Below, one piece after another: positions 1,704-58,049 of a DNA stretch of 64,000 bases; position 1 is the first letter of the stretch, and every line of letters starts with the position of its first letter. The translations under genes were made by a program, and so were the position numbers. Under the pieces are notes generated by a model. That model was given only the letters and a program-made list of their open reading frames with translations. It was not told where the DNA came from and ran no database searches. Origin of the DNA: an uncultured Candidatus Saccharibacteria bacterium. GTDB taxonomy: Bacteria; Patescibacteriota; Saccharimonadia; CAZBQI01. The stretch is taken from the NCBI GenBank assembly GCA_964494105.1, contig CAZBQI010000001.1:3126-67125 (forward strand). Reading direction: 5' to 3'.

Positions 1704-1943
1704 AGCTGTGGATAGTCTGGTTAAAAGCTGGTTACAAAATTGTGTAAATATCAACCAAAAATATTTCTTGTGTATAATTCTTGGTTTTTCCGCTTTTCTT
1801 GCACAACTTGTGCAACTAGTTTTCGTCAGCCAAAATCAGCCAAAAATGGCTCTTGTAAGTAATCGTCATGGACTTTTCCGCTTTTCCACAACTTATAATC
1901 AACAAGATTCTTCTTATTTTAATAAATTAATAAAGGAACCAAT
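1704..1943. promoter_or_regulatory. AT-rich dnaA-dnaN intergenic region with degenerate DnaA boxes (tgtggatag at 1713-1721, ttttccaca near 1877-1885) and a tandem cttgtgcaa repeat (1797-1820); candidate second oriC half / DNA unwinding element
   Basis: 240 bp non-coding, AT-rich, between dnaA and dnaN; degenerate boxes and short direct repeats seen directly; bipartite origins flanking dnaA are known in many bacteria. Confidence 0.4.
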
Positions 1944-3050: not shown

Positions 3051-3120
3051 GGGAGGGTGGGGGCTAGCCGCTACTTGGAAGTTTTGATAAGCACTATGTT
3101 AAACAAACTACCACTAAAAT

Positions 3121-8959: not shown

Positions 8960-11900
8960 TGATCGACCAGTGCCAAGGTTCGCTCGGCAAGTTTTGAAAT
9001 CCATAATTTGTGGAGTTGGCTGCCAGCCATTGGTAGCAGGCAGTAGAGCGGTACCGGCAGTTATTAAAATCAATCGCCACTCCCCAGCCGTGATTTGATC
9101 TACCAACGGGCGCAGTTGGTACTCGACACTGGCTGGAAGATGTCCAGTTAGGCGGGCAACCATTGGCTTGGCCGGCGCGGAGCTGACCGGCCAGGTCGCG
9201 GAAGCCGCTACCGCTGAGGATTACACCAGCGTCTTCGGCGTCGCTGATCATATTCTGCACACACTGAGCAACGTCTTGGCGGACACCACGGTTGATGACA
9301 GCGTTGTTCCCTCGGCTGATAATTGGCTCAACTATCGGTATTCCGGGTGCGTTTCCGTCGGCGGGTACCGGCGCTGGCAAAGCCGGGCTTCCTGGTTGGG
9401 GCGAACAGCTAGTGGTAAAGGCCGGGCCTCCGCCTATGTTACCAACGGCAGCGCCCACGGCAGCGCCAGTGCCCAGCCCGCTGTCATCCTCTTCGTTTTG
9501 GAGCGACGTCGATTCCCGTAGTATGAATTCGTCTTTTTTATACAAAACAAAACGCTGGCCTATCACACTTTTTTGTAAGCTATCGCCCCCATCACCAAAA
9601 CAGTCAGCGTATTCAGAACTGTTAAACCGCACAATCATGCGTGCGGTGCTGTCTTTGAAGCACTTGCCATATTTTGCCTCGAGCGCATCGTACTGTGGTT
9701 CTACAATTTTTGCGTTTTCTCGGGGGCACCATGATTCATCGTCGATGCATTTATCAAATAAGTTCAACGGCACGCCGAATTGCTTAATGCCATAGGGGCC
9801 TTCACCCGAGGCCGCCCAAATTGGCTGGCTACGTTCGCTGTACGAGATAACTTTTTCGTGGACGAAATTCATAGGGCTAATGTTGGCAAGTGCGGTTGTG
9901 GCGAAAGTTCTGACTTCGCTTAGGCTGGTTGGCACGCGGATGACAAACTGGGCTGCCAGCGAGCGAATATTACCGGTGTCAAATATACGGGCGTACCAAC
10001 TGCGCGTGCTGTCTTTTTCGTACTGGATACGGTTAAGTTCGGCTGAGTATTCGTTAATCTGATCAGGCGTTAAGACCATGGCACCGGATTGCTTGTCCAT
10101 TTCTAGGCCAATTATCTCAGTCCCGGCACCGGCCTTGTTAAAGCCGGCCGACGCTTCTTCTTGCGAAGCGTTATCGGAGCCCGAGTAGGCCTCGACCATT
10201 CTGGGCATCAGCCAGTCGGTCATTAAGATTTGAACTGTTAGTGCTCCACCTGACTTAACGACTGTTGTTCCGAGCACCTTAATTGCTAGCTTCATTGTTT
10301 GCCATACGCCCTGAGCTACAACTTCCGACGTACTTAAACTCCATATTGCTAATAGAAATTCTACGAGACTAGTTATGGCCTGACCAATATAGCTTAGAAT
10401 GGCTCTACAGGTAGCCTCAAAAGCAAAGTCAGCTTTTGGACCAAGAGCATTCCAAGAAGTTTCGAGTATGTTCTTGATAGCTTCAGGTGATTCACCCATA
10501 GCTTTCTGAGGGTATAGTTCCTCGGGCATGTCGTACTTTTCGCCTTTCGAGGCCATCCCCAGGCCACTCCGATATTCGGTGGAATACTCAAAGTCGCCCA
10601 ATGAATCTACGCAGGCCTGGACTGCTTTCGAGGTAACATCCCCTTCTTTTTGCTGATCGGCACAATTAAATATGCTGTAGGAAAACCGGGCATAGTTTTC
10701 ACTGCGCTTTTCAATGACTTTCTCGATGTTATAGACGTAAGCGTCATATAATAAGCATATTGTAACTGCTACTGCATTCAGCACGCTAAGACCTCTCAAA
10801 ATGGCAAATGCAGGCCTAGCCTTAAATGATTCGATGATTCGCTCTAATATCCTGGTTCGCTGGGGGACGGCTGCTTCGCCGGCCGCATCAGCTGCTTCAT
10901 CCGTAAAATCACCGTTCTTTATGCGGTCTTGGTTCCTTTTTGTTTCGTCGTCAACCTCTTGGCTAAGGCTAACAACTCGATCAGGATCGCGTATGGCTAG
11001 GTCTTGACGTTTTTGATCGATATTTAGTGCTTCGACGCGGTTTTTTCCTTTAAATATTCTGCCTAAATCGTCAAACCGAATTAGTCGTAGTTTTAGTTGA
11101 CGTCGTATATCGAGCAGTAGTTTTCCGCGCCAGATTTTATTTCTCATGGCGTTGATAGATAATATTTCCTCCTCGAGTTCCTTAACAGCGGCCATTTTTT
11201 GCGCTCGAGTTGCATTCTCTGGTAATAAGTACTCGCGACCGGTGGTTAAGTTGCGATAACCACGAAAGTCATTGGTCAAGCGTAAGTTCCACTTGCGCCG
11301 GCTTTTCATAACTAGTTCTATGCCATCAGCTCGCCCAAGGCGCGTCAGTGCCGATTGCGGGTTATAGCCGACCAACAAATCTGTTACGCCCCCGCGCCGG
11401 ATAGGGTTTAGCCGACCGGTGCTTTCGGCCGACACCAAGCCCTCGCTGGCAACGAGCTGACCAACCCGCCTAGCTAGCTGTAGGTTAAAGCGAGCCAGGT
11501 GAACGTCAATCAAATATTGTTTAACGTGCTCGGGTTTGTAAAGGAACGCGAAAAAGAACAGCAATACCCCCATACCGGCGACCACACCCAGCACACCCCA
11601 CACACTAAAGCCCAGCAATTTGCGAACAAACATTTTTCGAGCTGTTTTTCGGACCGGGTGTTTTTTGTGCTTACTTTTTTCGTGATAGTAAGATTCGCTT
11701 GCATCATCGAAGAATTCTTTGGCCGATTCGCCTAGCAACCTGCCGGTTGCTTGTGAACCAACCGACTTAATCAATTTTTCTTTTAGCTTATTTCCGGCCT
11801 CTTTATCGGCGACGTCATCTTTGTTTTGATGGCTGGTAGCCAGCTGGTCGAACTGGGCAATTTCGCCTGGTTGCAGTGGCACGGTTGGCTTGTCGACCTG

Positions 11901-12134
11901 TGGGCTGGTAGGTGTACCTATTGGGTTGGTTGGTATGTTTGGGGCGCCTAGATTTGGAGTACCAATTTTTGGAGCTGATGATGTCTTAGCCGAGCGAAAC
12001 GGCACCCTCGGCTTAATTGGCATGCCGGGGTGACGGGGGGGCTTTATTGGTAGGGCTGAGTCACTGCCAAGGCCGGGAGTCTTGCGACGATCTTTGTCTG
12101 GATTGCGCTGGCGCAAGTCTCCGCCCTGATTCAT
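8949..12134 (-). CDS. Giant (1061 aa) single-pass membrane protein with Pro-rich cytoplasmic N-terminus, large extracytoplasmic region and a C-terminal LAS/M15B (VanY-like D-Ala-D-Ala carboxypeptidase) domain; T4SS-associated
   Basis: N-terminal PKIGTPNLGAPNIPTNPIGTPTSPQVDKPTVPL; TM LLGFSVWGVLGVVAGMGVLLFFFAFLY; C-terminal SGFRDLAGQ ... RSNHGWGVAIDF matching the M15 SxHxxGxAxD zinc-binding signature; stop overlaps VirB4 start region (operon). Confidence 0.65.
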   Translation of the reverse strand: MNQGGDLRQRNPDKDRRKTPGLGSDSALPIKPPRHPGMPIKPRVPFRSAKTSSAPKIGTPNLGAPNIPTNPIGTPTSPQVDKPTVPLQPGEIAQFDQLATSHQNKDDVADKEAGNKLKEKLIKSVGSQATGRLLGESAKEFFDDASESYYHEKSKHKKHPVRKTARKMFVRKLLGFSVWGVLGVVAGMGVLLFFFAFLYKPEHVKQYLIDVHLARFNLQLARRVGQLVASEGLVSAESTGRLNPIRRGGVTDLLVGYNPQSALTRLGRADGIELVMKSRRKWNLRLTNDFRGYRNLTTGREYLLPENATRAQKMAAVKELEEEILSINAMRNKIWRGKLLLDIRRQLKLRLIRFDDLGRIFKGKNRVEALNIDQKRQDLAIRDPDRVVSLSQEVDDETKRNQDRIKNGDFTDEAADAAGEAAVPQRTRILERIIESFKARPAFAILRGLSVLNAVAVTICLLYDAYVYNIEKVIEKRSENYARFSYSIFNCADQQKEGDVTSKAVQACVDSLGDFEYSTEYRSGLGMASKGEKYDMPEELYPQKAMGESPEAIKNILETSWNALGPKADFAFEATCRAILSYIGQAITSLVEFLLAIWSLSTSEVVAQGVWQTMKLAIKVLGTTVVKSGGALTVQILMTDWLMPRMVEAYSGSDNASQEEASAGFNKAGAGTEIIGLEMDKQSGAMVLTPDQINEYSAELNRIQYEKDSTRSWYARIFDTGNIRSLAAQFVIRVPTSLSEVRTFATTALANISPMNFVHEKVISYSERSQPIWAASGEGPYGIKQFGVPLNLFDKCIDDESWCPRENAKIVEPQYDALEAKYGKCFKDSTARMIVRFNSSEYADCFGDGGDSLQKSVIGQRFVLYKKDEFILRESTSLQNEEDDSGLGTGAAVGAAVGNIGGGPAFTTSCSPQPGSPALPAPVPADGNAPGIPIVEPIISRGNNAVINRGVRQDVAQCVQNMISDAEDAGVILSGSGFRDLAGQLRAGQANGCPPNWTSSSQCRVPTAPVGRSNHGWGVAIDFNNCRYRSTACYQWLAANSTNYGFQNLPSEPWHWSINGN

Positions 12135-14257
12135 GAGTGCGTCTGCCTTAAGTCAATAGTGGTGCCGGCTTTAACGTCATCAGACGGAGATTTCTGCGCC
12201 GGGGCTATTGGTGGCTGGGTAGCGTCTGCACTACTAGGGGCCGATGGCTCAACGTTAGGTGCTTTGCTATCCGGCTGATTATTTGCCGGTGCTTCCGTCT
12301 GCGCTGGTGGCTCAGATGATGGCGCCAGTTGTGGTCCGGGTAGTGTAATTTTTGGTTGGGGTTTTCCCTGTTCTTCGTTGATTTGCGCCACACTCGCAAT
12401 AACACTGGCGGTTGTAGCGCCTTCTTCTTCCATGGCTTCAATTGCCTTGATTTGCTGAGGGTTAGTGGTAATTAGTTCAGTTTCGGTACTTGAAGCATCG
12501 ATTCTGACGTGAACGTGATTGGAGCCGGCAAAAAATAATCCCTGGCCAACGGGGAATTGGCTGAGTTTTTTGTGTTCGGAATCGGTGAGTTTAAAGGTAC
12601 TGGCTACAATGTCTACCGCCGATGGTGCTTGCTTGAGGAGCAACTGGATGCTGGAGTTAGCAACCACTGCTCGGCCCATGCGCGAGCTTAGAAAGTCCTC
12701 GACGTCTTGAGAAATTGTGGTTAGCCCTAGGTTGTATTTACGGGCACGTTTAGCCACGCTAAACAGAAAATTAGCCGAATCTTCGTATCTCATTAATTGC
12801 CAGGCCTCGTCGACAATTAAATAGCGTTTGATTTGGTCGGATTTTACCCGATTCCAGATGTGATTGAGAATAATATACATAGCTACCGGTCGTAATTCGT
12901 CTTCGAGGTCGCGAATATTGAAAACAATAAAGTCGTTTTCGATGCCAACGTTTGATTGGTTCGAGAAAATACCCGAAAACGTCCCGGTAGTATACTTTCG
13001 TAGTCGCTGAGCCAACGCCGGACCATAACCTTCCATCGATACCAGTGTTTCGTATAGGTCGCCAATGGTTGGGGGTGTGGCCGAATGAGTAAGTGGATCG
13101 GCTGTAATGCCGGCTTTGGCGTAGGTGGCAATTAGTGCTTGGTCTAGGTCGCCTTCTTCGGCGGGGCTAATTTGTCCACCCATCATTAAGCGCAACATAC
13201 CATGAAGGGTAATGAGGTTTGCACGCAGGGAGTTTTCGGCCTCCTCTTGGTCGAGCACATGGGGTAAATCAAACGGGTTAAAATAGGTTTTGCTGGTTAG
13301 GCTTAAGCGCAGATAGGCTCCACCGACTGCTGTGCATAGCCTTTCGTATTCGTTTTCGGGATCGATAATTAGAATTTGAATACCCATCATCAAACTTCTA
13401 ATGGCTTCGAGTTTTACCGTAAAACTCTTACCGGCACCAGATTTTGCAAATACCACTAAGTTGGCATTTTCAAGGCTAAAGCGGTCAAAAATAACCAAGC
13501 CGTTATTATGCATATTAATGCCGTAAAGTATGCCGGCCTCTTGGCTTAAGTCGGCCGAGGTAAACGGAAAGCTGGTAGAAAGCGCACCCGTATCCATGTT
13601 GCGTTTTATTTGGAGTTGATCGGTTGCTTGTGGCACGGTTGAATTCAAACCCTGTTCCATTTGGACGGTGGCCGGCTTACTGTAAACAAGATTCTGACCA
13701 AATATCCCCTCAATTTTGTGCTGAGTGTAATCTAGCGCATCAAGTGTAGAGGCGTAGATGGTTAGGTACAAACAAAAACGAAAGAACCTTTCCTCGCCCA
13801 CCTGCAGGCTGTCTCGAAGCTGTTCAGCATCGTTAATGGCGGCTTCGGTGCCCGGGTCTCGCACTCGGCCTTTTTCGGCTAATATCTGCTCGGTGGCCTC
13901 TAGCTGACCAACTTTTTTGCGAAGGTTTTCTAGCACCACTCGGCTTTCAACCGGGTAGATAAACATGCTGACATCAATCGATTCGTCGATGTTAATTATT
14001 TCCGAAAGCCAGCCGGTGTAAATTTGTCTGGGATAGCCATAAACATAAATGGTGCGGGCAAAACGCGAACCGAGCTTAAAAAAGGAAGATTGAAATTCAA
14101 TAGAGGGTGGTGCGATAAAATCGCGCAAGCTGGTAACACCCTTGCGGAACTCTTCTTCAACCTCGCGCTTTTCCCGAAGTTGCTGTTGTTCGGCTTTCGT
14201 TAGGCTGGGTTTTTTACTAAAAAGGCCCATTTTTTTCTTCCCGTGCAAATAGCACAT
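12131..14257 (-). CDS. virB4: Type IV secretion ATPase VirB4/TrbE/CagE family (C-terminal ~700 aa portion; see upstream ORF and frameshift)
   Basis: Walker A VVFAKSGAGKSFTVK, Walker B LIVDEAWQLM, Gram-positive VirB4 N-domain motif DFIAPPSIEF..YPRQIYTGWL; Pro-rich C-terminal tail. Confidence 0.85.
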   Translation of the reverse strand: MCYLHGKKKMGLFSKKPSLTKAEQQQLREKREVEEEFRKGVTSLRDFIAPPSIEFQSSFFKLGSRFARTIYVYGYPRQIYTGWLSEIINIDESIDVSMFIYPVESRVVLENLRKKVGQLEATEQILAEKGRVRDPGTEAAINDAEQLRDSLQVGEERFFRFCLYLTIYASTLDALDYTQHKIEGIFGQNLVYSKPATVQMEQGLNSTVPQATDQLQIKRNMDTGALSTSFPFTSADLSQEAGILYGINMHNNGLVIFDRFSLENANLVVFAKSGAGKSFTVKLEAIRSLMMGIQILIIDPENEYERLCTAVGGAYLRLSLTSKTYFNPFDLPHVLDQEEAENSLRANLITLHGMLRLMMGGQISPAEEGDLDQALIATYAKAGITADPLTHSATPPTIGDLYETLVSMEGYGPALAQRLRKYTTGTFSGIFSNQSNVGIENDFIVFNIRDLEDELRPVAMYIILNHIWNRVKSDQIKRYLIVDEAWQLMRYEDSANFLFSVAKRARKYNLGLTTISQDVEDFLSSRMGRAVVANSSIQLLLKQAPSAVDIVASTFKLTDSEHKKLSQFPVGQGLFFAGSNHVHVRIDASSTETELITTNPQQIKAIEAMEEEGATTASVIASVAQINEEQGKPQPKITLPGPQLAPSSEPPAQTEAPANNQPDSKAPNVEPSAPSSADATQPPIAPAQKSPSDDVKAGTTIDLRQTHS

Positions 14258-15134
14258 CCCGTGAGTCGCCCTTGCCTTTTGTTACTATCGGCGCCTCGAG
14301 TTCATTAATATCAACCAGGTGTTCGGCAGCTGAAGTTATTGGGTTGTAAACATTGTAGTAAAGCTCTATTAGTTCCTGAGTATTAAGTGTAACGGCGTTA
14401 ACCGACATGTCGTTTAGGCCGTTTAAAACGACAAATGCTCTTTCCTTGAGTTCGTCAATGTAGCGTTTATAGTCGACTGAGTTGATGTTGATGGTTTTAT
14501 GTTTATTGCCCATTAAGGCATTTAAGCTTAGTATTCCACCACTCTTTACAGATAGATTTGGGTGGTAGGGAACGACCACATAAAATTGCTTGCTCATGAT
14601 GTTGGAATTTTCAATCAAGTACTTGATGTAGTCGATATAATCCTCCATTAATAGCCCAAGCATTACCTTTTCTTGATCGCGTTGAATTTTCTCTAGTTTC
14701 TCGATGTAGTTATTTAAATCAACCCGCTGTGAGCGCACGTAAATTTGAATTTCAAAAAAGAGCGAGTTTAAAAAAGACTGGTAGCTGGATTCAACGGCTT
14801 CTCTTTCCTGGCTACTCATGAGGTCGAAGTTGATCGACTGGCACATTACTACCGCCCGCAAACTGCCATCGCGCATAATTACCAAGCCGTCGCGAATTTC
14901 GGCGATTTGCAAAGAATTCTGAGTAGTTGTGACTGCTTTTTTATTGGGCTTTTTTGATTCGGGTTTGGCTGTAGTGGTAGTACGAGCTTTTTGGGCCGGT
15001 CTAGAGGCTTGATTAGCTGGGGCATGCGTGGTGGCACCTCCCAGTACCGGCCGAGGCGGAGGTGTTGGCGCAGTCGTAGGCTGACTGTTTGGATTAGACG
15101 GTAGTGTTGGTTGTATATTTTGATCTGGTGGCAT
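14217..15134 (-). CDS. Probable N-terminal portion of VirB4 (Pro-rich N-terminus + VirB4 N-domain motif), separated from the ATPase ORF by a frameshift in an A7 run
   Basis: 305 aa; IRDGLVIMRDGSLRAVVMCQSINFDLMSSQEREAV resembles the conserved start of VirB4/TrbE proteins (..DG.l..kDGsl.a.....g..f.l.s..E); overlaps the downstream ORF by 41 nt around T7 at 14230-14236. Confidence 0.55.
   Translation of the reverse strand: MPPDQNIQPTLPSNPNSQPTTAPTPPPRPVLGGATTHAPANQASRPAQKARTTTTAKPESKKPNKKAVTTTQNSLQIAEIRDGLVIMRDGSLRAVVMCQSINFDLMSSQEREAVESSYQSFLNSLFFEIQIYVRSQRVDLNNYIEKLEKIQRDQEKVMLGLLMEDYIDYIKYLIENSNIMSKQFYVVVPYHPNLSVKSGGILSLNALMGNKHKTININSVDYKRYIDELKERAFVVLNGLNDMSVNAVTLNTQELIELYYNVYNPITSAAEHLVDINELEAPIVTKGKGDSRDVLFAREEKNGPF
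14230..14236 (-). repeat. A7 homopolymer (T7 on plus strand) at the junction of the two VirB4 reading frames
   Basis: Read directly: gaagaaaaaaatggg on minus strand; a 1-nt change in run length fuses the 305-aa and 708-aa ORFs. Confidence 0.8.
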
Positions 15135-15311
15135 ACAAGAATCGGGCCCCTTTATATGTAGGTGGATGAAAAAGCCAATTCACCCCTAAAAACATGAGCA
15201 CTTTAGGCTGGGGTTAGTATATCATTTTGACTACTGTTAAAGAAGCACCAATAGTTAACTTTTTTTAAGTTGAGGTTTTATGAAAATGTTTTCGTGAAAA
15301 TATTGTATTAT

Positions 15312-15977
15312 TTAAACGCTTTTAGCGGGCGTTTTTGCCAATTGCATTTTGGCAATTGCCTGGGCTTTGACTGCGGTCTTGCTTGATGCTTCGAGCTTGG
15401 CAATATCTTTTGCGTCAGGGTTATTATGTACATCGAGCATGTCTTCGTACGAATGCACCTCTATCGGCTCTTCTGGCTTGGCATTTAAACTATCCATGCT
15501 GATTAGTCGATCACCGTCGTCGACCACCAAATTACCCACACCGACATTGATATTTGGGTCTTTGGCTATCCAGCCACGGCTATCAACAATTTTGGCTAGT
15601 TGTTCGAGCTGACCATGAACCTGTAAAATACTGACTTTATCTGGCAATATTGCCTTGAGTTTGGGTGGCACCAGATGAATATTCTCGTGCAGGCCTTCTG
15701 AATTCCACTTGCGAACCCTGGGTTTAAAGCGAAAATTTAGCGCCGCTAGTAAATATATTTCCACCGGCTGGTCTGGGCGACGGTAAATTCCCAGCACAAG
15801 GCATATTAGCGTTATCGGTAGTGGAATCAGTACTAGCGGTTGGTATAGCTTATAGAAAACGTAACACAGCGCTATGCCAATAGCGGCTATTACCAGAAAA
15901 ATAAATTGCTTGAAGGTAAATGGGCCAAGCAGTTTGTCTTCGGCTTCGACATCTTGGGGGATTTTATATTGAGCCAT
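15312..15977 (-). CDS. PrgI/VirB3-like small membrane protein with two N-terminal TM helices and a long soluble tail (start at internal MAQYKIP)
   Basis: MAQYKIPQDVEAEDKLLGPFTFKQFIFLVIAAIGIALCYVF..LVLIPLPITLICLVLGIY: N-terminal motif and 2-TM hairpin typical of Gram-positive VirB3 analogues; lies immediately upstream of VirB4. Confidence 0.5.
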   Translation of the reverse strand: MAQYKIPQDVEAEDKLLGPFTFKQFIFLVIAAIGIALCYVFYKLYQPLVLIPLPITLICLVLGIYRRPDQPVEIYLLAALNFRFKPRVRKWNSEGLHENIHLVPPKLKAILPDKVSILQVHGQLEQLAKIVDSRGWIAKDPNINVGVGNLVVDDGDRLISMDSLNAKPEEPIEVHSYEDMLDVHNNPDAKDIAKLEASSKTAVKAQAIAKMQLAKTPAKSV

Positions 15978-16173
15978 AACATAAGTATTATGTATCAAGT
16001 GTCAAGTATCAAGCGGATTGGTTCGGACTTGGGCCAATTAAAAATTAGATTATATGGAATCTCTAAACTTGTTACTACCGTCTACAAACTACCATTTGGT
16101 GGGTTGCTTTGATTCACAACCGGGCCGGCATCGTCCTAAATATGGGTTTTTTGGTACAGACCGCTTATGGTTA

Positions 16174-23344: not shown

Positions 23345-23767
23345 ATGCTTAAAACCACAAATCAAAAATCTTTCATTTTTGCGCTCATCGGTCTAGCCAT
23401 TGTTAGCTGTTTTTTGCTGGCCACGTTAGTTAGTTCTTCTTTTGTCGTGGCTGCGCCCACACCGACCCCCGTCGGGGGTTCAGCTAGTGGTTGCACCGAG
23501 TTGGCGATTGATGTGGGTGCGGCAGCTTGTGGGAAAAATCGACTGATGAAATATATAACCGCTTTGGTGCGGTTTCTTTCGCTGGGGGTTGGAATAATCG
23601 TAGTGATTATGATTATTGTGGGTGGCATTCAATACACTAGCTCTGGCGGTGATGCTGGGGCGGTAGCAGCAGCCAAGAGCAGGATATTTAATGCTATTTT
23701 GGCACTGCTGTTGTATATTTTTACCATTGCCATATTAAACTGGCTGGTCCCAGGGGGAATAGTTTAA
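23345..23767 (+). CDS. VirB2/TrbC-like T4SS pilin paralog 1 (signal peptide, Cys pair, C-terminal 2-TM hairpin)
   Basis: 140 aa; CTELAIDVGAAAC; C-terminal GVGIIVVIMIIVGGIQYTSSGGDAGAVAAAKSRIFNAILALLLYIFTIAI = two hydrophobic helices around a GG loop. Confidence 0.55.
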   Translation: MLKTTNQKSFIFALIGLAIVSCFLLATLVSSSFVVAAPTPTPVGGSASGCTELAIDVGAAACGKNRLMKYITALVRFLSLGVGIIVVIMIIVGGIQYTSSGGDAGAVAAAKSRIFNAILALLLYIFTIAILNWLVPGGIV

Positions 23768-23835
23768 ATGTGTATTATATTTGCGTATCGATTGCAATTA
23801 ACTGAGATGATACCTGGCTTAAGGAATAGTTTTAC

Positions 23836-24603
23836 ATGAAAACAGCTCAAAAAATCTATCTCTTATTAGTGATAAGTGCTTTTACATTTGGCATGAGTTT
23901 TGTTTCTAGTTTTATCTCTAGCCCGCCTGTAAAAGCTGCTTCGGAGCTACAATTTCACTTCTTTTGTCGTAGTGGCGCCGCAGTAGTCAAAGAAACAGTC
24001 AGTGGTGGCACAGCAATAAAATGTGAAGACGGCTCTGCTCTTGGTAGGCACATTGGTGATGACGAGGAAAATATATTCACCACTTTTAATGTCGAATGCG
24101 CCAGAGGTACACCCAATTTAGATTCGGTTTCTAATATATTTAGCTGTGATGGTGGCGGGGGTGCTGAACCACAGGTAACAAAAGTAGATGATGATAGTGC
24201 AGGCCAGCCACCACCTGGCTCTGGAGGTGGCTCTGGTGGAGGTGGTTCTGGCGGCGGATCTGGAGGCGGTGGTACCAGTGGCGTTTGTGGTAGTGGCGAC
24301 ATGTTATTTGGAATAATTCCAACTTGGTACAAGTACCTGGAGTTTTCACCCGATTGCACAGTAATAATAAGCAAGATAGATGACTTTTTAAAAATCGGCG
24401 GGGCGGTAATTGAAATTGTGCTACGTCTGGGGGCAATAGCGGCTATCGGGTTCATCATCTTTGGTGGTTTTCGCTTTGTTACTAGCATGGGCGACCCCGA
24501 AGGCATCAAAAACGCGCGGAATACCATCATTAATGCTGTAATTGGTTTGGCTTTAATGATTCTTTCTACCACTATCGTTAGCTTTATAGCGGGGAGGCTG
24601 TAA
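23836..24603 (+). CDS. VirB2/TrbC-like pilin paralog 2 with long variable region and Gly/Ser linker
   Basis: 255 aa; signal peptide; GSGGGSGGGGSGGGSGGGGTSG linker; C-terminal AIAAIGFIIFGGFRFVTSMGDPEGIKNARNTIINAVIGLALMIL. Confidence 0.55.
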   Translation: MKTAQKIYLLLVISAFTFGMSFVSSFISSPPVKAASELQFHFFCRSGAAVVKETVSGGTAIKCEDGSALGRHIGDDEENIFTTFNVECARGTPNLDSVSNIFSCDGGGGAEPQVTKVDDDSAGQPPPGSGGGSGGGGSGGGSGGGGTSGVCGSGDMLFGIIPTWYKYLEFSPDCTVIISKIDDFLKIGGAVIEIVLRLGAIAAIGFIIFGGFRFVTSMGDPEGIKNARNTIINAVIGLALMILSTTIVSFIAGRL

Positions 24604-24890
24604 TGTTTGAAAACACAATTTTTTATACGCTTGCCCAGCTAAGGGGTGCGCATGGGTTGCCGAACCCCGACACATCTAACGTGCTCGAGACCGTGCTTAA
24701 GACTTCTTTTGTAATAATTGGGGCGCTCGCAGTGATATTTGTAATTATTGGCGGGTTTCAATACGTTCTGTCGGGTGGCAATCCGAATAATACCAGTCGG
24801 GCCAAAGAGACAATTATCTATGCCATTGTGGGTTTGGTGGTTTCGCTTCTGGCATTTAGCATAGTAGACTTTGTGGTAGGAAAAGTATGA
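24603..24890 (+). CDS. VirB2/TrbC-like pilin paralog 3 (short form)
   Basis: 95 aa; FVIIGALAVIFVIIGGFQYVLSGGNPNNTSRAKETIIYAIVGLVVSLLAF; start overlaps the preceding stop (ATGA...). Confidence 0.55.
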   Translation: MFENTIFYTLAQLRGAHGLPNPDTSNVLETVLKTSFVIIGALAVIFVIIGGFQYVLSGGNPNNTSRAKETIIYAIVGLVVSLLAFSIVDFVVGKV

Positions 24891-25261
24891 AAAAAGCAGT
24901 GATAGCCTTATTCGTTCTAGTGATTGCCGGTGCGCTTTCGCTGGGTTCTGTATGGGCCGACACCAAAACCGAGGTTTGCGAAGGGCTTAAGCAAGGTAGT
25001 CCGAGCGTACAGTGCGATCCGGATAGCTCCGATAAGATTATTGTTGATACAATTGATAAGGTTTTAGGGGTGTTGTCGTTTGCAATTGGGGCGCTCTCGG
25101 TATTGATGATAATCTTTGGTGGGTTTCGCTACGTTGTCTCGGGTGGTGACAGCTCGGGGGTAGAAGGCGCGAAAAATACCATATTGTACGCCATTGTTGG
25201 TTTAGTTATTGCCTTTTTGGCGCGGCCGATAATCGTTTTCGTGATTGGGTGGTTTGTTTAA
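24887..25261 (+). CDS. VirB2/TrbC-like pilin paralog 4
   Basis: 124 aa; signal peptide; CEGLKQGSPSVQC; LSVLMIIFGGFRYVVSGGDSSGVEGAKNTILYAIVGLVIAFL. Confidence 0.6.
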   Translation: MKKAVIALFVLVIAGALSLGSVWADTKTEVCEGLKQGSPSVQCDPDSSDKIIVDTIDKVLGVLSFAIGALSVLMIIFGGFRYVVSGGDSSGVEGAKNTILYAIVGLVIAFLARPIIVFVIGWFV

Positions 25262-25843
25262 ATGAAGTTACTTACTGCTGTTTGTTGCCTGATGTTTTTT
25301 GGTTTATTCGTGATGAGTATGCCGGTATTTGCCCAGGACAGAAAAATAACCCCTCGACCAGGTGCTACAACTCCTGCACCTGAGGCAACTCCGGGCGTAC
25401 CCGAAGCAACCCCACCAGCAAGTGGTGGCGGAGGTTCAGGTAGCGGTAGCGGAAGCGGAAGTGGCGGAGGCAGTACTAATCCCTTTGCTGCCGAAATTTG
25501 CGAAGGCGCCAAGAATGGCGCCGGCAGTGATTGTTCCGGCTCGTCTTTTCTAAAAGGCCTAAAGAATATTGCCAATATTATCTTGTTTCTAATTGGGGCG
25601 GTAGCGGTAATAATGATAATTATCGGCGGGTTTCGCTATGTTGTCTCGGGTGGTGACAGCTCGGGGGTGGAAGGCGCGAAAAACACCATATTGTACGCTG
25701 TGATTGGCCTAATAGTGGCGGCGCTTTCTTTTGCGATTGTAAATTTCGTTATAACATCAATTTCCGGTTCCGGTAGTGGCGGGGGGACCGGGAGTACACC
25801 GGGTAGCTCAAGCGGACCACCCGGGGGGTCCAGTGGACCATAA
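25262..25843 (+). CDS. VirB2/TrbC-like pilin paralog 5 with Gly/Ser linkers on both sides of the pilin core
   Basis: 193 aa; signal peptide; SGGGGSGSGSGSGSGGGS; CEGAKNGAGSDC; VAVIMIIIGGFRYVVSGGDSSGVEGAKNTILYAVIGLIVAAL; C-terminal SGSGSGGGTGSTPGSSSGPPGGSSGP. Confidence 0.6.
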   Translation: MKLLTAVCCLMFFGLFVMSMPVFAQDRKITPRPGATTPAPEATPGVPEATPPASGGGGSGSGSGSGSGGGSTNPFAAEICEGAKNGAGSDCSGSSFLKGLKNIANIILFLIGAVAVIMIIIGGFRYVVSGGDSSGVEGAKNTILYAVIGLIVAALSFAIVNFVITSISGSGSGGGTGSTPGSSSGPPGGSSGP

Positions 25844-25847
25844 GGTG

Positions 25848-25877
25848 TTGCATATCAGCAAAAGCATAAGCTATAAT
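25848..25877 (+). promoter_or_regulatory. Sigma70-like promoter (TTGCAT -35 at 25848-25853, 18-nt spacer, TATAAT -10 at 25872-25877 within TAAGCTATAAT) for pilin paralog 6; RBS AAGGAG at 25888-25893, GTG start
   Basis: Read directly from sequence. Confidence 0.5.
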
Positions 25878-25901
25878 GTTTTTAAATAAGGAGTACTTAC
25901 A

Positions 25902-26333
25902 GTGAAAGCCCTAAAAAATAAAATCTCGAAATTGCTTACTATAACCGCCAGCGCCGGTATTTTCTTTATGTTGTTATTCGCCCCGGTGTTTGCACAGGAT
26001 GTAGCATGCGATCCAACAACCGGCTCTAGCGGCCTGCAGAACGGCGCCAACTGTGCTCAAGCGTCGGGTACCTCAGATCAATTGTTCGGTGAAGACGGTC
26101 TGTTTAAGAAGGTCAGTAATATCTTGGTCTTCTTGGTGGGTGCGGTATCGGTTATCATGCTGATTATCGGTGGTTTTCGCTATGTGGTCTCGGGTGGCGA
26201 CAGCTCAGGGGTGGAAAGCGCGAAAAACACCATCCTCTATGCCATCGTTGGTATTGTGGTGGCGTTTCTGTCATATGCCGCCGTCAACTTCGTTATCGGT
26301 GGACTTTCTAATACTACCGGCGCTGGCGGTTAA
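25902..26333 (+). CDS. VirB2/TrbC-like pilin paralog 6 (GTG start)
   Basis: 143 aa; signal peptide; CDPTTGSSGLQNGANC; VSVIMLIIGGFRYVVSGGDSSGVESAKNTILYAIVGIVVAFL. Confidence 0.6.
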   Translation: MKALKNKISKLLTITASAGIFFMLLFAPVFAQDVACDPTTGSSGLQNGANCAQASGTSDQLFGEDGLFKKVSNILVFLVGAVSVIMLIIGGFRYVVSGGDSSGVESAKNTILYAIVGIVVAFLSYAAVNFVIGGLSNTTGAGG

Positions 26334-27168: not shown

Positions 27169-27855
27169 TTGCTACTAGATACTGATGTGGTGATAATTGA
27201 CAGTGTTCTTGATTTAATTGCTCCATTTTCTTGCGTTAAATGCCACAACGAAGGCGAATTAGTCTGCGATAGCTGTAAACGGACATTATCTAAGCCCAAA
27301 AAATCAACCTGTGCCCTGTGCAATTCGCTTACCAACAACTTTCGCTTATGCAAACGTTGCCAACATCAAACCAAGCTTCGAGGGGTTTTGGTGGCATCAC
27401 ATTATGAGGGCGAGGTAAAACAGCTGATTCAAATGCTCAAATACGAACGAGCTATGCGGGCGGCTAATTACTTGGCAGAGTTGCTAGTTCCGCAGGTAAA
27501 GCCCCGAGATTATGATTATATTTCTTGGGCACCGGTGAGTTCACGACGGTTTCGCCAGCGCGGGTATAATCAGGCTAAGTTGATTGCTAAACAAATTGCC
27601 GCTCAAACCAAAGTTCCCTATATAGAAACACTTGGGCGCCTGGGGCACGCGCGCCAAGTAGGAACCGGTCGCAAGCTAAGAACACAGCAGTTAAAGGGCA
27701 GTATGTACGCAGTTAAACCAGAGCGCTTTAAAAGCAAACGAATAGTAATAGTTGATGATGTGCTAACAACCGGGGCAACCCTAAGCGAGTGCGCGAATGT
27801 GCTCATGGCAGCGGGCGCAAAATCGGTTTGGGGCGCAGCCGTTGCCAAGCACTAA
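27169..27855 (+). CDS. comFC: ComF family protein (ComFC-like phosphoribosyltransferase with N-terminal zinc ribbon); DNA-uptake/competence-associated
   Basis: 228 aa; four CxxC pairs (CVKC..CDSC..CALC..CKRC); PRTase motif RIVIVDDVLTTGATLSECANVL. Confidence 0.75.
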   Translation: MLLDTDVVIIDSVLDLIAPFSCVKCHNEGELVCDSCKRTLSKPKKSTCALCNSLTNNFRLCKRCQHQTKLRGVLVASHYEGEVKQLIQMLKYERAMRAANYLAELLVPQVKPRDYDYISWAPVSSRRFRQRGYNQAKLIAKQIAAQTKVPYIETLGRLGHARQVGTGRKLRTQQLKGSMYAVKPERFKSKRIVIVDDVLTTGATLSECANVLMAAGAKSVWGAAVAKH

Positions 27856-27881
27856 TAGTAACCATATAATTACAGCGATAC

Positions 27882-27971
27882 GGAGGGGTGACCGAGCGGT
27901 TGATGGTGCTAGTCTTGAAAACTAGTGTGCCGGAAACGGTACCGTGGGTTCGAATCCCACCCCCTCCGCCA
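27882..27971 (+). tRNA. tRNA-Ser (anticodon TGA), CCA encoded
   Basis: ggaggggtg acc gagcggttgat ggt; anticodon stem-loop ctagt-cttgaaa-actag; long variable arm; T-arm gtggg-ttcgaat-cccac; 3' cccctccgcca. Confidence 0.9.
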
Positions 27972-28106
27972 TCCTCCGTCGTTTGCCTTCCGGGCAAACT
28001 ATGGAGGATAGTTGAAAGGTATGAGAACCCAAACTGCGCAGCAGGGGGTTCGTTAATTTAGCCAGCGCGCAAGAATTTATTCTGAGCACTGGCGCGAATT
28101 AGCCAT

Positions 28107-28124
28107 ATCCCACCCCCTCCGCCA
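28107..28124 (+). repeat. Exact 18-nt direct repeat of the tRNA-Ser(TGA) 3' end (atcccaccccctccgcca; first copy 27954-27971) 135 bp downstream of the tRNA; att-like scar
   Basis: Identical 18-mer read directly at both positions; lies ~30 nt upstream of the SDR gene start. Confidence 0.8.
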
Positions 28125-30636: not shown

Positions 30637-30729
30637 TGGAGAGGTACCCAAGAGGCTGAAGGGGCTGGTTTGCTAAACCGGTAGGTCGGGGAAACCTGGC
30701 GCGGGAGTTCGAATCTCCCCCTCTCCGCC
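30637..30729 (+). tRNA. tRNA-Ser (anticodon GCT), CCA encoded
   Basis: ggagaggtacccaagaggctgaagg...ctggt-ttgctaa-accgg (one G-U pair), long variable arm, gagttcgaatctc T-arm, cctctccgcca. Confidence 0.85.
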
Positions 30730-30813
30730 AATTATTGATGGCAATAAACATCGTGAGTATGCACCGAGATAACGAGAGAGATAAACGCTTATGTCTGCTG
30801 TATAATACTTTGT

Positions 30814-31975: not shown

Positions 31976-31991
31976 AAAGTAAAAAGCTAGT

Positions 31992-32006
31992 GGTACGCCC
32001 GACAGA
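31992..32006 (-). repeat. 15-nt exact repeat of the tRNA-Arg 3' end (tggtacgcccgacag; tRNA copy at 32143-32157), ~135 bp downstream of the tRNA in its own orientation
   Basis: Identical 15-mer (16 of 17 with flanks) read directly at both positions. Confidence 0.75.
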
Positions 32007-32142
32007 AGTAGCGGCTGCGCCTTCTCCGCTCAAAAGTGCTCGAAGTAAACTTCTGCGCGCTTTATCGCTTCGCCGAACCTCAACGGTTCGTATTCGCTAC
32101 GCGAATCTACCAGTGAAAAAGCCGGCACGCCGGCACTTTCAC

Positions 32143-32219
32143 TGGTACGCCCGACAGGATTCGAACCTGTGACCTCTGGCTCCGCAAGCCAACGCTCTAT
32201 CCAGCTGAGCTACGGGCGC
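32143..32219 (-). tRNA. tRNA-Arg (anticodon read as GCG), CCA encoded, followed by a GC hairpin + T-run terminator (32120-32140 on plus strand)
   Basis: Reverse complement GCGCCCGTAGCTCAGCTGGATAGAGCGTTGGCTTGCGGAGCCAGAGGTCACAGGTTCGAATCCTGTCGGGCGTACCA folds as canonical 77-nt cloverleaf; D-loop like E. coli tRNA-Arg. Confidence 0.8.
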
Positions 32220-32394: not shown

Positions 32395-32431
32395 GGAGAG
32401 GTGACCGAGCGGTTGAAGGTGCTGCTTCGAT
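32395..32431 (+). pseudogene. 5' fragment of a tRNA-Ser-like gene (acceptor + D-arm + start of anticodon stem), no 3' half
   Basis: ggagaggtgaccgagcggttgaaggtgctgct is near-identical to the first 30 nt of tRNA-Ser(TGA) at 27882; followed by two perfect hairpins (32434-32456, 32462-32490) then an intact tRNA. Confidence 0.6.
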
Positions 32432-32509
32432 CAATGTCAAACAATTTGTTTGACATGAGTAGCTTGCTGTTACAATTTAAAACAGCAAGCGCTAAAGCAG
32501 TGCAAATAT

Positions 32510-32599
32510 GGAGAGGTGCTGGAGCGGTTGAACAGGACGGTCTCGAAAACCGTTGGTCATTTCGGTGACCCGTGGGTTCGAATCCCACCCTCTCCGCCA
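32510..32599 (+). tRNA. tRNA-Ser (anticodon CGA), CCA encoded
   Basis: ggagaggtgctggagcggttgaacagg; acggt-ctcgaaa-accgt; long variable arm; gtggg-ttcgaat-cccac; cctctccgcca. Confidence 0.88.
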
Positions 32600-57844: not shown

Positions 57845-57862
57845 ATGGCGGAGAGGGAGGGA
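57845..57862 (-). repeat. Exact 18-nt repeat of the tRNA-Ser(GGA) 3' end (plus-strand tggcggagagggagggat; tRNA copy 57958-57975), 95 nt downstream of the tRNA in its orientation
   Basis: Identical 18-mer read directly at both positions. Confidence 0.8.
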
Positions 57863-57957
57863 TGAACGCTTCGCTACTCCCTACGTGCCTTTCTCGATGC
57901 AAGCACCTGCGAGAGACACTTGTGATTGAACCTTAGAACCGAATCCTTCTTTTCTTC

Positions 57958-58049
57958 TGGCGGAGAGGGAGGGATTCGAACCCTCGAAGCCCGTTGCCGA
58001 ACTTACCACCTTTCCAAGGTGGCGCACTAAACCGCTATGCGACCTCTCC
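57958..58049 (-). tRNA. tRNA-Ser (anticodon GGA), CCA encoded
   Basis: Reverse complement ggagaggtcgcatagcggtttagtgcgcc accttggaaaggtgg (ccacc-ttggaaa-ggtgg) long variable arm gaggg-ttcgaat-ccctc cctctccgcca. Confidence 0.85.

Follow-up and report, generated by a model that had tools for sequence, protein, structure and literature searches.

Transfer RNA genes are classical landing sites for mobile DNA, and the known agents are kilobase elements that carry their own integrase. Integrative elements of this type (prophages, genomic islands, ICEs, and integrase-less derivatives such as CIMEs) are flanked by direct repeats made of the tRNA 3' part and keep the tRNA intact. Among smaller elements, MITEs typically have flanking repeats of 2-10 bp, and IS200/IS605-type elements produce neither a target duplication nor partial copies of the target gene. 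Transfer RNAs also serve as primers for reverse transcriptase, which copies primer positions 59-76 and stops at m1A58.

Within a 64-kb stretch of Saccharibacteria DNA (the window, meaning all of the DNA analyzed), three tRNA genes, tRNA-Ser(TGA), tRNA-Arg(GCG), and tRNA-Ser(GGA), have their 3' end repeated at a distance of 94-137 nt downstream, with 18, 15, and 18 exact bases, respectively. The copied stretch comprises tRNA positions 59-76, from the last two bases of the T-loop through CCA. As originally predicted, ATCCCACCCCCTCCGCCA occurs exactly at 27954-27971 and 28107-28124 of the Ser(TGA) locus; with up to two mismatches allowed, five matches were found in the window versus 0.01 expected from shuffles, and the three beyond this pair are the Ser(GGA) copy and the terminal sequences of further tRNA-Ser genes. 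The two further cases named in that prediction were also recovered, with an exact copy of 15 nt at 31991-32005 (18 nt with two mismatches at 31991-32008) behind tRNA-Arg and of 18 nt at 57846-57863 behind tRNA-Ser(GGA). From start to start, the tRNA-end repeats are spaced 153 (Ser(TGA)), 152 (Arg), and 112 nt (Ser(GGA)), and the downstream repeat (copy B) lies just 5' of a same-strand gene at all three loci. No ORF was found inside the three enclosed segments. Genes for tRNAs were placed with ARAGORN and Rfam. None of the 34 tRNAs at 80 unrelated control loci had a 3'-end-only duplicate, all downstream matches coming from neighboring whole tRNA genes; these loci were drawn from a genome-contig set with a ComF-derived peptide pattern that was too generic, and Saccharibacteria account for four of the 80.

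The Ser(TGA) locus has the following parts:

27842..27870, + strand: promoter-like site (TTGCCA-17-TATAAT) of tRNA-Ser(TGA), from a consensus scan only
27882..27971, + strand: tRNA-Ser(TGA), intact, CCA encoded (ARAGORN, Rfam); copy A of the 18-mer (positions 59-76) is 27954-27971
27972..28008, + strand: hairpin H1 (TCCTCC...GGAGGA), immediately 3' of CCA, homologous to the L001 and L002 trailers
28023..28052, + strand: hairpin P-x (GAACCC...GGGTTC), from the fold and tRNA comparison
28053..28106, + strand: conserved module, type 4 (motif, fold, covariation)
28107..28124, + strand: copy B, exact positions 59-76 of tRNA-Ser(TGA); the SDR gene starts 30 nt farther on (ATG 28155)

Hairpin H1 of this locus is probably the native tRNA trailer or terminator, a reading based on the homologous trailers in the related loci L001 and L002; its stem shows a compensatory change, being TCCTCC/GGAGGA in the window versus TTCTCC/GGAGAA in L001. 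The 3' arm of P-x (GGGGGTTCG) resembles the 5' strand of the tRNA T-stem plus the T-loop (GTGGGTTCG) at 8/9 positions. The inverted local-tRNA arm of P-x fits no standard transposition scheme. The outer stems of the type 4 module are TTAATT/AATTAG and GCCAG/CTGGC (28061-28065 with 28089-28093), and its core is CGCGCA-AGAA-TTTA-TTCT-GAGCA at 28066-28088. Over 61 nt, the element is 88.5% identical to one behind tRNA-Lys in L115. A consensus scan detected no terminator-like site between the tRNA promoter and the SDR gene, which would make the element part of that transcript. We also considered, and rejected, the segment as a full decayed tRNA copy with an anticodon loop (TTGAAA), a feature that is not kept in the L001 ortholog.

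The Arg locus reads as follows:

32143..32219, - strand: tRNA-Arg(GCG), intact (ARAGORN, Rfam)
32108..32142, - strand: hairpin H1, intrinsic-terminator-like (GCCGGCGTGCCGGC plus TTTTT; fold, terminator scan)
32091-32107, - strand: hairpin 2, ATTCGC-GTA-GCGAAT (fold)
32074-32090, - strand: hairpin P-x, CGAACC-GTTGA-GGTTCG (fold)
32006..32073, - strand: conserved module, type 3 (motif, fold, covariation)
31991..32008, - strand: copy B, 15 nt exact (31991-32005) and 18 nt with two mismatches; a 127-aa ORF has its ATG 15 nt farther downstream

The outer stem of this H1 pairs the tRNA's own TACCA with TGGTA. The type 3 module has the core CGCGCA-GAAG-TTTA-CTTC-GAGCA at 32037-32059 and the outer stem AAAG/CTTT, and the element is 95.9% identical over 49 nt to that behind tRNA-Asn in L119 and 89.6% identical to that behind tRNA-Ala in L125.

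Common to the Ser(TGA) and Arg segments is CGCGCA-[4-bp stem, TTTA loop]-GAGCA within a covarying outer stem. The shared motif is 27 nt long and ungapped, and its six differences form three compensatory pairs; the module pattern was found twice in the window versus 0.11 expected. The original prediction had assigned one architecture to all three tRNAs. This holds for Ser(TGA) and Arg, whose segments align with a score of 30 versus 14.6 +/- 1.9 in shuffles, but not for Ser(GGA), which lacks the module, matches none of the compared loci, and does not align with either of the other two segments above shuffles. The enclosed DNA had likewise been described as an imperfect hairpin plus non-coding sequence; it is non-coding, but holds the conserved structured module besides.

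An exact-pattern scan of metagenome contigs returned 39 loci, of which 18 are family members, 17 with a perfect 4-bp hairpin and L099 with the same flanks; the remaining 21 matches are GC-rich, unpaired, and due to chance. The motif shared by Ser(TGA) and Arg recurs in these 18 metagenome loci, which agrees with the recurrent process originally proposed. The module is 55-75 nt long with an almost invariant core, an apparent invariance that is partly built in because the members were found by exact pattern. Across the 18 distinct cores, 88.4% of cells are paired versus 73.8% in shuffles, both sides have changed in 9/11 pairs, and the observed score was reached by 0/500 shuffles; slid-register controls gave 29-52%. 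In 14 of 17 members, folding favors the sense strand over the antisense strand, with more G-U pairs. One conserved strand-biased hairpin was seen in the elements and a second was not found, and inspection revealed no terminal inverted repeats at the ends of the module or of the whole segment. As a promoter (type 1 TTTACT...17...ATATAC), the core fails in types 3 and 4, and its stem covaries; as group II intron domain V, a hammerhead, or a K-turn, it lacks the consensus features on inspection, and Rfam was negative. The sequence AAGGAGATATA, 3' of the type 1 core, was rejected as a small-ORF or Shine-Dalgarno signal: there is no start codon at a usable distance, and the motif is not in the window types. 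In viral contigs, the strict pattern gave 0 matches and a relaxed pattern gave 14, none with a paired hairpin, so we see no evidence for a phage origin.

A same-strand upstream tRNA was detected in 12 of the 18 members (Glu, Asp, Leu, Lys, His, Asn, Met, Ala), with 85-157 nt between the tRNA end and the motif in these 12. Where the upstream tRNA is readable, a copy of the local tRNA 3' end is usually present 3' of the module. The element is found behind about ten to a dozen tRNA species with no common downstream gene, and one module type lies behind different tRNAs, each with that tRNA's own 18-mer. The copy has a fixed boundary, at T-loop position 58/59: exact identity spans 18 nt (59-76) in the window Ser(TGA) and Ser(GGA) loci and in L001, L002, L085, L086, L102, L115, and L151, with one base more (19 nt) in L100 and L120 and one base fewer (17 nt) in L088. 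In well-preserved copies, local tRNA positions ~40-57 lie just 5' of the module, before TTCG (17/17 matches in L120, 17/18 in L119, 13/13 in L113, and 12/12 in L118). The T-stem matches its own tRNA at 3.7/5 positions versus 2.4/5 in cross-comparisons, and the observed value was reached by 0/20,000 shuffles. Because local positions ~40-57 precede the module and 59-76 follow it, the downstream unit is a partial tRNA 3' copy (positions ~40/49-57 and 59-76) that the module splits in the T-loop, at 57/58|59. Among the compared loci, a module-free partial tRNA copy did not turn up. Copy B is decayed with the core intact in L108, L113, L118, L119, L121, and L124. Other units lie kilobases from any tRNA or in tandem arrays with other inserts (L086, L091, L094): in L086, inserts follow one another in tandem with tRNA 3' copies between them, and in L094 at least 2.5 kb of insert precedes the unit.

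The same tRNA loci in related genomes, to which the original prediction had pointed, revealed that presence/absence polymorphism exists. L001 and L002 are occupied, and in L003, L004, L005, and L010 the same tRNAs are followed by a terminator only, with no insert and no second copy. The element of L001 is the ortholog, and compensatory changes have occurred in its H1, its outer stem, and its hairpin; the ComF of L001 is 69% identical. In L002, a 91-aa GIY-YIG gene lies between the same two 18-mers as in the window Ser(TGA) locus, and GIY-YIG cassettes between identical 18-mers occur behind tRNA-Ser(TGA), Ser(GGA), Gly, Asn, and Glu(CTC) in other contigs. These cassettes carry 13-nt terminal inverted repeats (TTCGACWGGCTCA) and lack the CGCGCA...GAGCA module, and a 19-bp inverted repeat forms a long hairpin whose loop contains the ORF, near ORF-less forms. 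With only 91 aa, the protein is a bare nuclease domain without a DNA-binding domain. No GIY-YIG gene or remnant was found in the window, where tblastn with the L002 protein gave nothing better than E = 0.035. Finally, H1 appears to be the native tRNA trailer: it differs among copies of the same type, whereas different species share it at a single locus, and empty sites have hairpins of the same kind. In that case, the inserted DNA is located 3' of H1 and is not described by a simple target-site duplication of 18 nt at the CCA end.

The third window locus, Ser(GGA), is different in content:

57958..58049, - strand: tRNA-Ser(GGA), intact (ARAGORN, Rfam)
57864..57957, - strand: enclosed 94-nt segment without the conserved module (sequence, fold)
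57846..57863, - strand: copy B, exact positions 59-76, upstream of an ABC-transporter operon

The segment contains the T-loop-like fragments GGATTCGG and GGTTCAATC, a GCGAAGCG hairpin, and a possible partial tRNA copy, GCATCGAGA, at 57892-57900. It has no fold signal (z +0.78), and no match was found to the core profile (nhmmer) or to the GIY-YIG cassettes and other compared loci (blastn-short). The same 18-mer as its copy B ends the GIY-YIG cassette behind the orthologous tRNA in L085, and 8/29 positions match the 29-nt right end of that cassette, which is chance level. The segment may be either the scar of an unrelated insert at the same kind of site or a decayed relative of the family.

We searched the window for enzymes that could move such elements. 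The integrase gene sought in the original prediction did not turn up: none of the 49 window ORFs of at least 150 aa that were scanned encodes an integrase (Phage_integrase) or recombinase. The scan of the 64-kb window also revealed no transposase, including Y1 (HUH), no TnpB, and no reverse transcriptase domain, and no nuclease, transposase, integrase, or reverse transcriptase linked to the ORF-less elements was found. With Rfam 15, only tRNA exceeded the gathering score, and E values up to 10 added tRNA-overlap noise only. No excised, circular, or moving form of the element was caught, and the literature, searched also with the core sequence itself, yielded no description of it.

On balance, the 18-nt repeat is probably the right-hand boundary of a small, non-coding, structured insertion from a family that lies directly behind tRNAs of the Saccharimonadales (Saccharibacteria, candidate phyla radiation) and is mobile and non-autonomous, with target-derived flanks. 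The family is apparently undescribed. Its order is tRNA, H1, P-x (the 3' arm of which ends in T-arm-like GGTTCG), the 55-75-nt module, and tRNA positions 59-76, and the real tRNA remains intact. A mobile, non-autonomous element of this kind would insert site-specifically at the T-loop/3' end of tRNA genes, and the flanking tRNA pieces would arise from the target at insertion, in the manner of a long target duplication, instead of being brought along by the element. The conserved hairpin may be the recognition structure, as RNA or as single-stranded DNA of the tRNA-sense strand, and the enzyme would be supplied in trans from a gene outside the window. A candidate is whatever mobilizes the 91-aa GIY-YIG cassettes, which in relatives are found at this very site and show the same 18-nt duplication. 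A bolder version, which we offer as speculative and rather doubtful, is that the module represents a new class of mobile structured nucleic acid (RNA or ssDNA) that recognizes the universal T-loop, inserts at A58|59, and produces or uses a copy of the last 18 nt, the 91-aa GIY-YIG hairpin cassettes being its ORF-bearing counterparts or its nuclease source. If true, this would be tRNA-targeting mobility without known integrase, DDE, HUH, or retro-homing machinery.

Several described systems share some of these features. As with integrative elements, there are tRNA 3'-end repeats on both sides of the insert, an intact tRNA, a tandem pile-up at one tRNA (L086), and occupied and empty sites among relatives. 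Unlike them, the insert is only ~95-160 bp, has no genes, and has no integrase in the window; the repeat begins exactly at position 59 at about ten tRNA species, though one module type moves among them; and the downstream attR-like copy is not uninterrupted, being split at 57/58|59 by the 55-75-nt structured module. We know of no classical att site split by a conserved structured module. Of the attL/attR-type signature that was originally proposed, the tRNA 3'-end junction duplications around inserted DNA stand, but the downstream copy is split in the T-loop and larger than an att core. Like MITEs, the elements are small, non-coding, multi-copy, and non-autonomous, with target direct repeats and stable hairpins; unlike MITEs, they have no terminal inverted repeats, an 18-nt repeat, a strict tRNA T-loop/3'-end target, and a conserved part that is an internal hairpin with an invariant internal loop rather than the ends. 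With IS200/IS605 elements and the ORF-less PATEs and REPs, they share a strand-biased hairpin with conserved loop and bulge bases and covarying stems, a left junction directly 3' of a short fixed sequence (here, T-loop TTCG(A)), and the need of non-autonomous copies for an enzyme in trans, but only one conserved hairpin was recognized instead of one per end, and no Y1 transposase was found in the window.

Free-standing GIY-YIG homing genes (T4 Seg) and group I intron-loop ORFs resemble the situation in relatives, where ORF-bearing and ORF-less forms occur at the same site. In contrast to those systems, the relatives' protein has 91 aa, and its cassette has its own 13-nt terminal inverted repeats without the module; such an ORF is missing from the window, there is no interruption of the target gene, and no intron-like RNA family matches. 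The duplicated piece is also exactly the 18 3'-terminal nt, positions 59-76, as in the logic of retroviral and LTR primer-binding sites, but the copy has the sense orientation, the window has no reverse transcriptase, and in at least one locus, L120, similarity past copy B seems, by eye, to run on into the gene's trailer, which a mature tRNA lacks. The A58|59 boundary is where reverse transcriptases stop on tRNA primers.

Between-species conservation with compensatory change could equally mean a host function. The element might be a structured host RNA, transcribed with or just behind the tRNA, whose 3' end mimics the T-stem, acceptor 3' strand, and CCA; possible roles are as a signal for processing or punctuation between the tRNA and the mRNA downstream, as a decoy for tRNA 3'-end enzymes, or as a small RNA gene derived from partial tRNA duplication. 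We consider this unlikely. It would explain the strong covariation, with the internal loop and the TTTA loop both staying invariant, the compensatory changes between orthologous copies although ComF is only 69% identical, the identity of the Ser(TGA) element in three samples, the favored sense strand (14/17 members, with more G-U pairs), the strong Ser(TGA) tRNA promoter with no terminator before the SDR gene in a consensus scan, and the position of copy B just upstream of a same-strand gene in 3/3 window cases. The distribution is patchy, however, with no element behind the same tRNAs in four other Saccharibacteria, and it spans about a dozen tRNA species with no shared downstream gene. Moreover, a terminator separates the tRNA from the module at the Arg locus, some units lie kilobases from any tRNA or in tandem arrays (L086, L091, L094), and copy B decays while the core persists in L108, L113, L118, L119, L121, and L124, which suggests that the tRNA-like end is not under lasting selection. 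A less likely explanation again is that the 55-75-nt module alone moves, inserting 3' of TTCGA in an IS200/IS605-like manner, and survives in pre-existing attR-side partial tRNA 3' copies only, because insertions in real tRNA genes are lethal. The contiguous target around the module (...GGTTCG(A)/module/59-76) with no duplication at that junction, the one conserved hairpin, which is strand-specific and has G-T pairs in just one of the two strands, and the L086 inserts with tRNA 3' copies between them all fit, and partial tRNA copies that begin at positions ~38-49 look like the identity blocks known from classical elements that integrate into tRNA genes. Two independent events would nonetheless be needed at each of about 20 loci, the older integrated element would be just 40-90 bp everywhere, and the compared loci include no module-free partial tRNA copy. 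The missing Y1 transposase in the window and the one hairpin recognized here versus two at IS200/IS605 ends weigh in the same direction, and the inverted local-tRNA arm of P-x is left unexplained.

The original prediction had offered a miniature element or an island remnant, and the former is the better option. Remnants of large islands or prophages, left when integrase-mediated integration at a tRNA 3' end was followed by near-total deletion, would show the tRNA 3'-end direct repeats that are the classical attL/attR signature, and larger inserts do occur at relatives' tRNA sites (the L086 array; at least 2.5 kb in L094). At Ser(GGA) only, the lack of a conserved module and of a fold signal also agrees with such an origin. 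Random deletion remnants would share neither sequence nor length, which contradicts this reading for Ser(TGA) and Arg, as both enclose a covarying module (three compensatory pairs between them) common to 18 other similar-sized loci. With no integrase in the window as well, we regard it as very improbable. Chance recurrence or mis-assembly at repeated tRNA sequences is refuted. Although tRNA 3' ends are mutually similar, assemblers often break or mis-join at tRNA genes, and L145 and L146 both terminate within the tRNA, five matches were observed versus 0.01 expected, and three cases occur in one window versus 0 in 34 control tRNAs. Furthermore, the Ser(TGA) element is 100% identical in L145 and L146, in which this species was assembled independently from other samples, and so is not an assembly artefact; it is identical in three independent assemblies in all, and another species has an orthologous copy. 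Metagenomes that contain this species are SRR30303755 and ERZ27258501.

The insertion family favored here would mean that, in Saccharibacteria with their very small genomes, tRNA sites of this kind hold gene-less insertions of ~100-150 bp. If mobile, these point to an undescribed insertion mechanism and enzyme, perhaps tied to very small GIY-YIG genes, which are common and horizontally mobile in Patescibacteria. If they are host RNAs instead, they would form a new tRNA-linked RNA family in a lineage for which, to our knowledge, almost no regulatory RNA is known. The 26-nt core pattern is a clean finder of members in metagenomes, and the elements account for recurrent assembly breaks and pseudo-tRNA fragments beside tRNA genes in Saccharibacteria. 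They also flag sites where foreign DNA accumulates, which is useful as Saccharibacteria are now genetically manipulable.

The window, placed in Saccharimonadales via ComF homologues, contains five tRNA genes according to ARAGORN, all of which were confirmed by Rfam:

27882-27971, + strand, tRNA-Ser(TGA)
30638-30730, + strand, tRNA-Ser(GCT)
32143-32219, - strand, tRNA-Arg(GCG)
32510-32599, + strand, tRNA-Ser(CGA)
57958-58049, - strand, tRNA-Ser(GGA)

As originally predicted, the 18-mer at the tRNA-Ser(TGA) 3' end (ATCCCACCCCCTCCGCCA, 27954-27971) occurs a second time at 28107-28124. Shuffled sequences predict 0.01 matches, confirming that the duplication is far beyond chance, and the segment is 100% identical in two independent same-species assemblies from different samples. 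The proposed recurrence at two other tRNA genes also held: the tRNA-Arg 3' end has an exact 15-nt copy at 31991-32005, which includes two mismatches when extended to 18 nt, and that of tRNA-Ser(GGA) has an exact 18-nt copy at 57846-57863. In a control set of 80 loci taken from other bacteria, none of 34 tRNAs had a duplicate of its 3' end alone. Within a MacB/FtsX permease gene, 12 nt match the tRNA-Arg 3' end (TGGTACGCCCGA, 56658-56674), most likely by chance (E about 0.2).

When the three tRNA-to-repeat intervals were aligned, those of Ser(TGA) and Arg proved alike, with a local alignment score of 30 (shuffles, 14.6 +/- 1.9). They have in common an ungapped 27-nt motif, AGCGCGCA-NNNN-TTTA-NNNN-GAGCACT, which was observed twice against an expectation of 0.11, and the six positions at which they differ within it are all accounted for by three compensatory base pairs of a 4-bp stem (AGAA/TTCT versus GAAG/CTTC). 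The Ser(TGA) segment also folds much better than shuffled sequences (z = -4.3). In contrast, the Ser(GGA) segment has no significant similarity to either of these and gives no fold signal relative to shuffles. The idea of a miniature inserted element and a recurrent process is broadly right, but the three sites do not share one architecture.

The same tRNA loci in relatives show the presence and absence of inserts. In L001, a contig whose ComF is 69% identical, an orthologous element stands behind tRNA-Ser(TGA) at the contig end and is closed by the identical 18-mer; relative to the window, paired changes are seen in the first hairpin after the CCA (H1; TCCTCC/GGAGGA to TTCTCC/GGAGAA), the outer stem (GCCAG/CTGGC to GCTGA/TCAGC), and the inner stem (AGAA/TTCT to AAAG/CTTT). 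In L002 (ComF 73% identical), the module is absent from this site; the space from the tRNA to the identical 18-mer holds a 91-amino acid GIY-YIG gene instead, and an H1-like trailer comes after the 18-mer. In four more distant Saccharibacteria (L003, L004, L005, and L010), the Ser(TGA) and Arg(GCG) tRNAs are followed by a terminator hairpin only. The site is thus polymorphic, being empty or occupied by the module or a GIY-YIG cassette. The tRNA and insert have opposite orientations relative to conserved neighbors in the window and relatives (ComF at Ser(TGA) in L002; the ABC-transporter/MacB operon at Ser(GGA) in L085), which suggests inversions around both sites.

Scanning metagenome contigs with the exact pattern gave 39 loci. 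Of these, 18 belong to the module family: 17 have a 4-bp stem that pairs perfectly, and L099 is included for its matching flanks; the other 21 are chance matches, unpaired and in GC-rich, coding-like DNA. The stems include GAAG/CTTC, AGAG/CTCT, GGAA/TTCC, GGAG/CTCC, and GAAA/TTTC, as well as GGAA/TTCT and GAAA/TTTT with G-T pairs. ARAGORN placed a same-strand tRNA upstream of 12 of the 18 members (Glu(CTC), Glu(TTC), Asp, Leu(GAG), Leu(TAA), Lys, His, Asn, Met, and Ala), and the tRNA end and the motif are 85-157 nt apart. Diverged copies in L001, L086/L087, and L122 emerged from a profile search. Over 18 distinct cores, 88.4% of cells are paired, versus 73.8% in shuffles, and 9 of 11 pairs change on both sides; none of 500 shuffles reached the observed covariation score, and slid structures were 29-52% paired. 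The internal loop (CGCGCA/GAGCA) and TTTA loop are invariant among members found by exact pattern, and 14 of 17 members fold better on the sense than on the antisense strand. The module had no Rfam match, even at E = 10, and no true members were found in viral contigs.

Several members have further features. TilS homologues adjacent to L121 carry Saccharimonadales names. In L122, one tRNA-Leu(TAA) is followed by two cores (6093-6115 and 6154-6176) spaced about 60 nt apart, of which the first is degenerate (CGCACA...GAGCAT), indicating tandem or nested insertion. Complete units, in which a degenerate copy of a tRNA 3' end is followed by a hairpin, the module, a 3' copy, and a second hairpin, also occur in tRNA-free contigs of 11-12 kb (L091, 1550-1800; L094, 2450-2750; L105, 10900-11100) and may be carried inside larger islands. 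The L094 unit adjoins genes for a Fic-domain protein and an HTH regulator; to the left of the unit is the end of a conserved short reading frame on the opposite strand (...NWNT..LER..GF...).

The copied piece spans tRNA positions 59-76 and so comprises the final two bases of the T-loop, the 3' strands of the T and acceptor stems, the discriminator base, and CCA. This boundary is constant in every well-preserved example, irrespective of the tRNA, with copies of 18 nt (L001, L002, L085, L086, L102, L115, L151), 19 nt (L100, L120), or 17 nt (L088). The bases directly 5' of the module end in TTCG, and the five before that match the T-stem 5' strand of the local tRNA at 3.7/5 positions, versus 2.4/5 for other tRNAs, a level reached by none of 20,000 shuffles. 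Identity to the local tRNA before the module is 17/17 in L120 (positions 40-57), 17/18 in L119, 13/13 in L113, 12/12 in L118, and 13/14 in L108. Because local tRNA sequence precedes the module and positions 59-76 follow it, the downstream unit is a partial 3' copy of the local tRNA (about 40/49 to 76), with the module inserted in its T-loop at 57/58|59. The hairpin just before the module (P-x) is the left part of this copy paired with an inverted copy of itself, often with an additional small hairpin with a GAA loop. H1, which varies among copies of one type yet is kept across species at one locus, resembles the terminators of empty sites and is probably the tRNA's own trailer.

Flanking sequence defines at least four module types, each found behind several tRNA species:

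Type 1: Glu; His; an Asn-like fragment
Type 2: Met; Leu; Glu(CTC)
Type 3: Arg (window); Asn (L119, 95.9% over 49 nt); Ala (L125); Asp (L102)
Type 4: Ser(TGA) (window and L001); Lys (L115, 88.5% over 61 nt)

Whatever the type, the 18-mer always matches the local tRNA; therefore, the tRNA-derived flank is made from or matched to the target rather than carried between sites. Older copies have a decayed 18-mer with an intact core.

GIY-YIG cassettes lie behind five tRNAs (Ser(TGA), Ser(GGA), Gly(GCC), Asn(GTT), and Glu(CTC)) in Saccharibacteria-like contigs. The GIY-YIG loci are as follows:

L002, 2042-2415: 91-amino acid GIY-YIG cassette
L085, 3756-4105: same cassette
L083, L084, L086, L087, L088, L151, and L152: same cassette
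L148: GIY-YIG gene

A perfect 19-nt inverted repeat (TCCTTCGACAGGCTCAGGA), beginning directly after CCA, encloses the ORF; the terminal inverted repeats are 13 nt (TTCGACWGGCTCA). There follow a short copy of the local T-stem 5' region (8/8 in L085, ATCGAGGG), a 23-nt unit ending GAGC-N-GTCGAACC, and exact tRNA positions 59-76. The overall logic is that of the ORF-less elements, although the conserved sequence differs. L086 has a tandem array: tRNA-Gly is followed by an insert of 600 nt, a degenerate 3' copy, and the cassette, which ends in an exact copy; then come 1.4 kb containing ORFs, another degenerate copy, a module, and a further exact copy. The TTCGAC motif is also present with a GIY-YIG homologue that lies about 220 nt behind a tRNA-Met in a MAG labelled Deltaproteobacteria. 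The cassette, of which we found no description, looks like a minimal mobile gene cassette.

The window begins with dnaA-dnaN-recF (360-4209), marking the replication origin region of the chromosome, followed by a type IV secretion cluster and housekeeping genes; in other samples (L142), rnpA and yidC lie upstream. The cluster (6000-16000) encodes a TraG-like ATPase, PrgI, and an M23 peptidase/transglycosylase, and downstream of it (23587-26296) a small membrane protein that has a T4SS_pilin domain is present as five tandem paralogues, which have diverged (repeat families D1, D2, and D5). An isolated 29-nt tRNA-Ser 5' fragment (32395-32423, + strand; acceptor 5' strand and D arm) lies upstream of tRNA-Ser(CGA), at a distance of 87 nt. 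With 93% identity to the tRNA-Ser(TGA) 5' end and 96% to that of L004/L005, it is the opposite kind of fragment to the 3' copies and suggests past breakage or rearrangement in its tRNA cluster. Between it and tRNA-Ser(CGA), a near-perfect, self-matching 23-nt palindrome (ATGTCAAACAATTTGTTTGACAT, 32434-32456) could be an operator, terminator, or recombination site.

The original prediction's classical integrase picture does not fit. The 49 window ORFs of at least 150 amino acids include no integrase, transposase, reverse transcriptase, TnpB, or GIY-YIG domains. The module is conserved, covarying, and strand-biased, has a fixed T-loop junction and flanks derived from the local tRNA, and occurs behind a dozen tRNA species; the ORF-less elements lack coding capacity and have no enzyme close by, and related genomes include empty sites. 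On balance we lean toward a non-autonomous mobile element specific for the tRNA T-loop/3' end, whose fold would serve as the recognition structure. A host-RNA function and a safe-harbor model remain as alternatives, as does, for Ser(GGA) only, a deletion remnant. Neither Rfam 15 nor the literature searched held a description of the element, and the family is apparently undescribed.

In L003, L004, L010, and most family members, the tRNA terminator hairpin is often extended by pairing between the (A)CCA end of the tRNA itself and a TGG(T) further downstream, as in the Saccharibacteria example CCAAATCAAG...TTGATTTGG. Such pairing of the CCA end may bear on 3' processing or on site recognition by the inserts.
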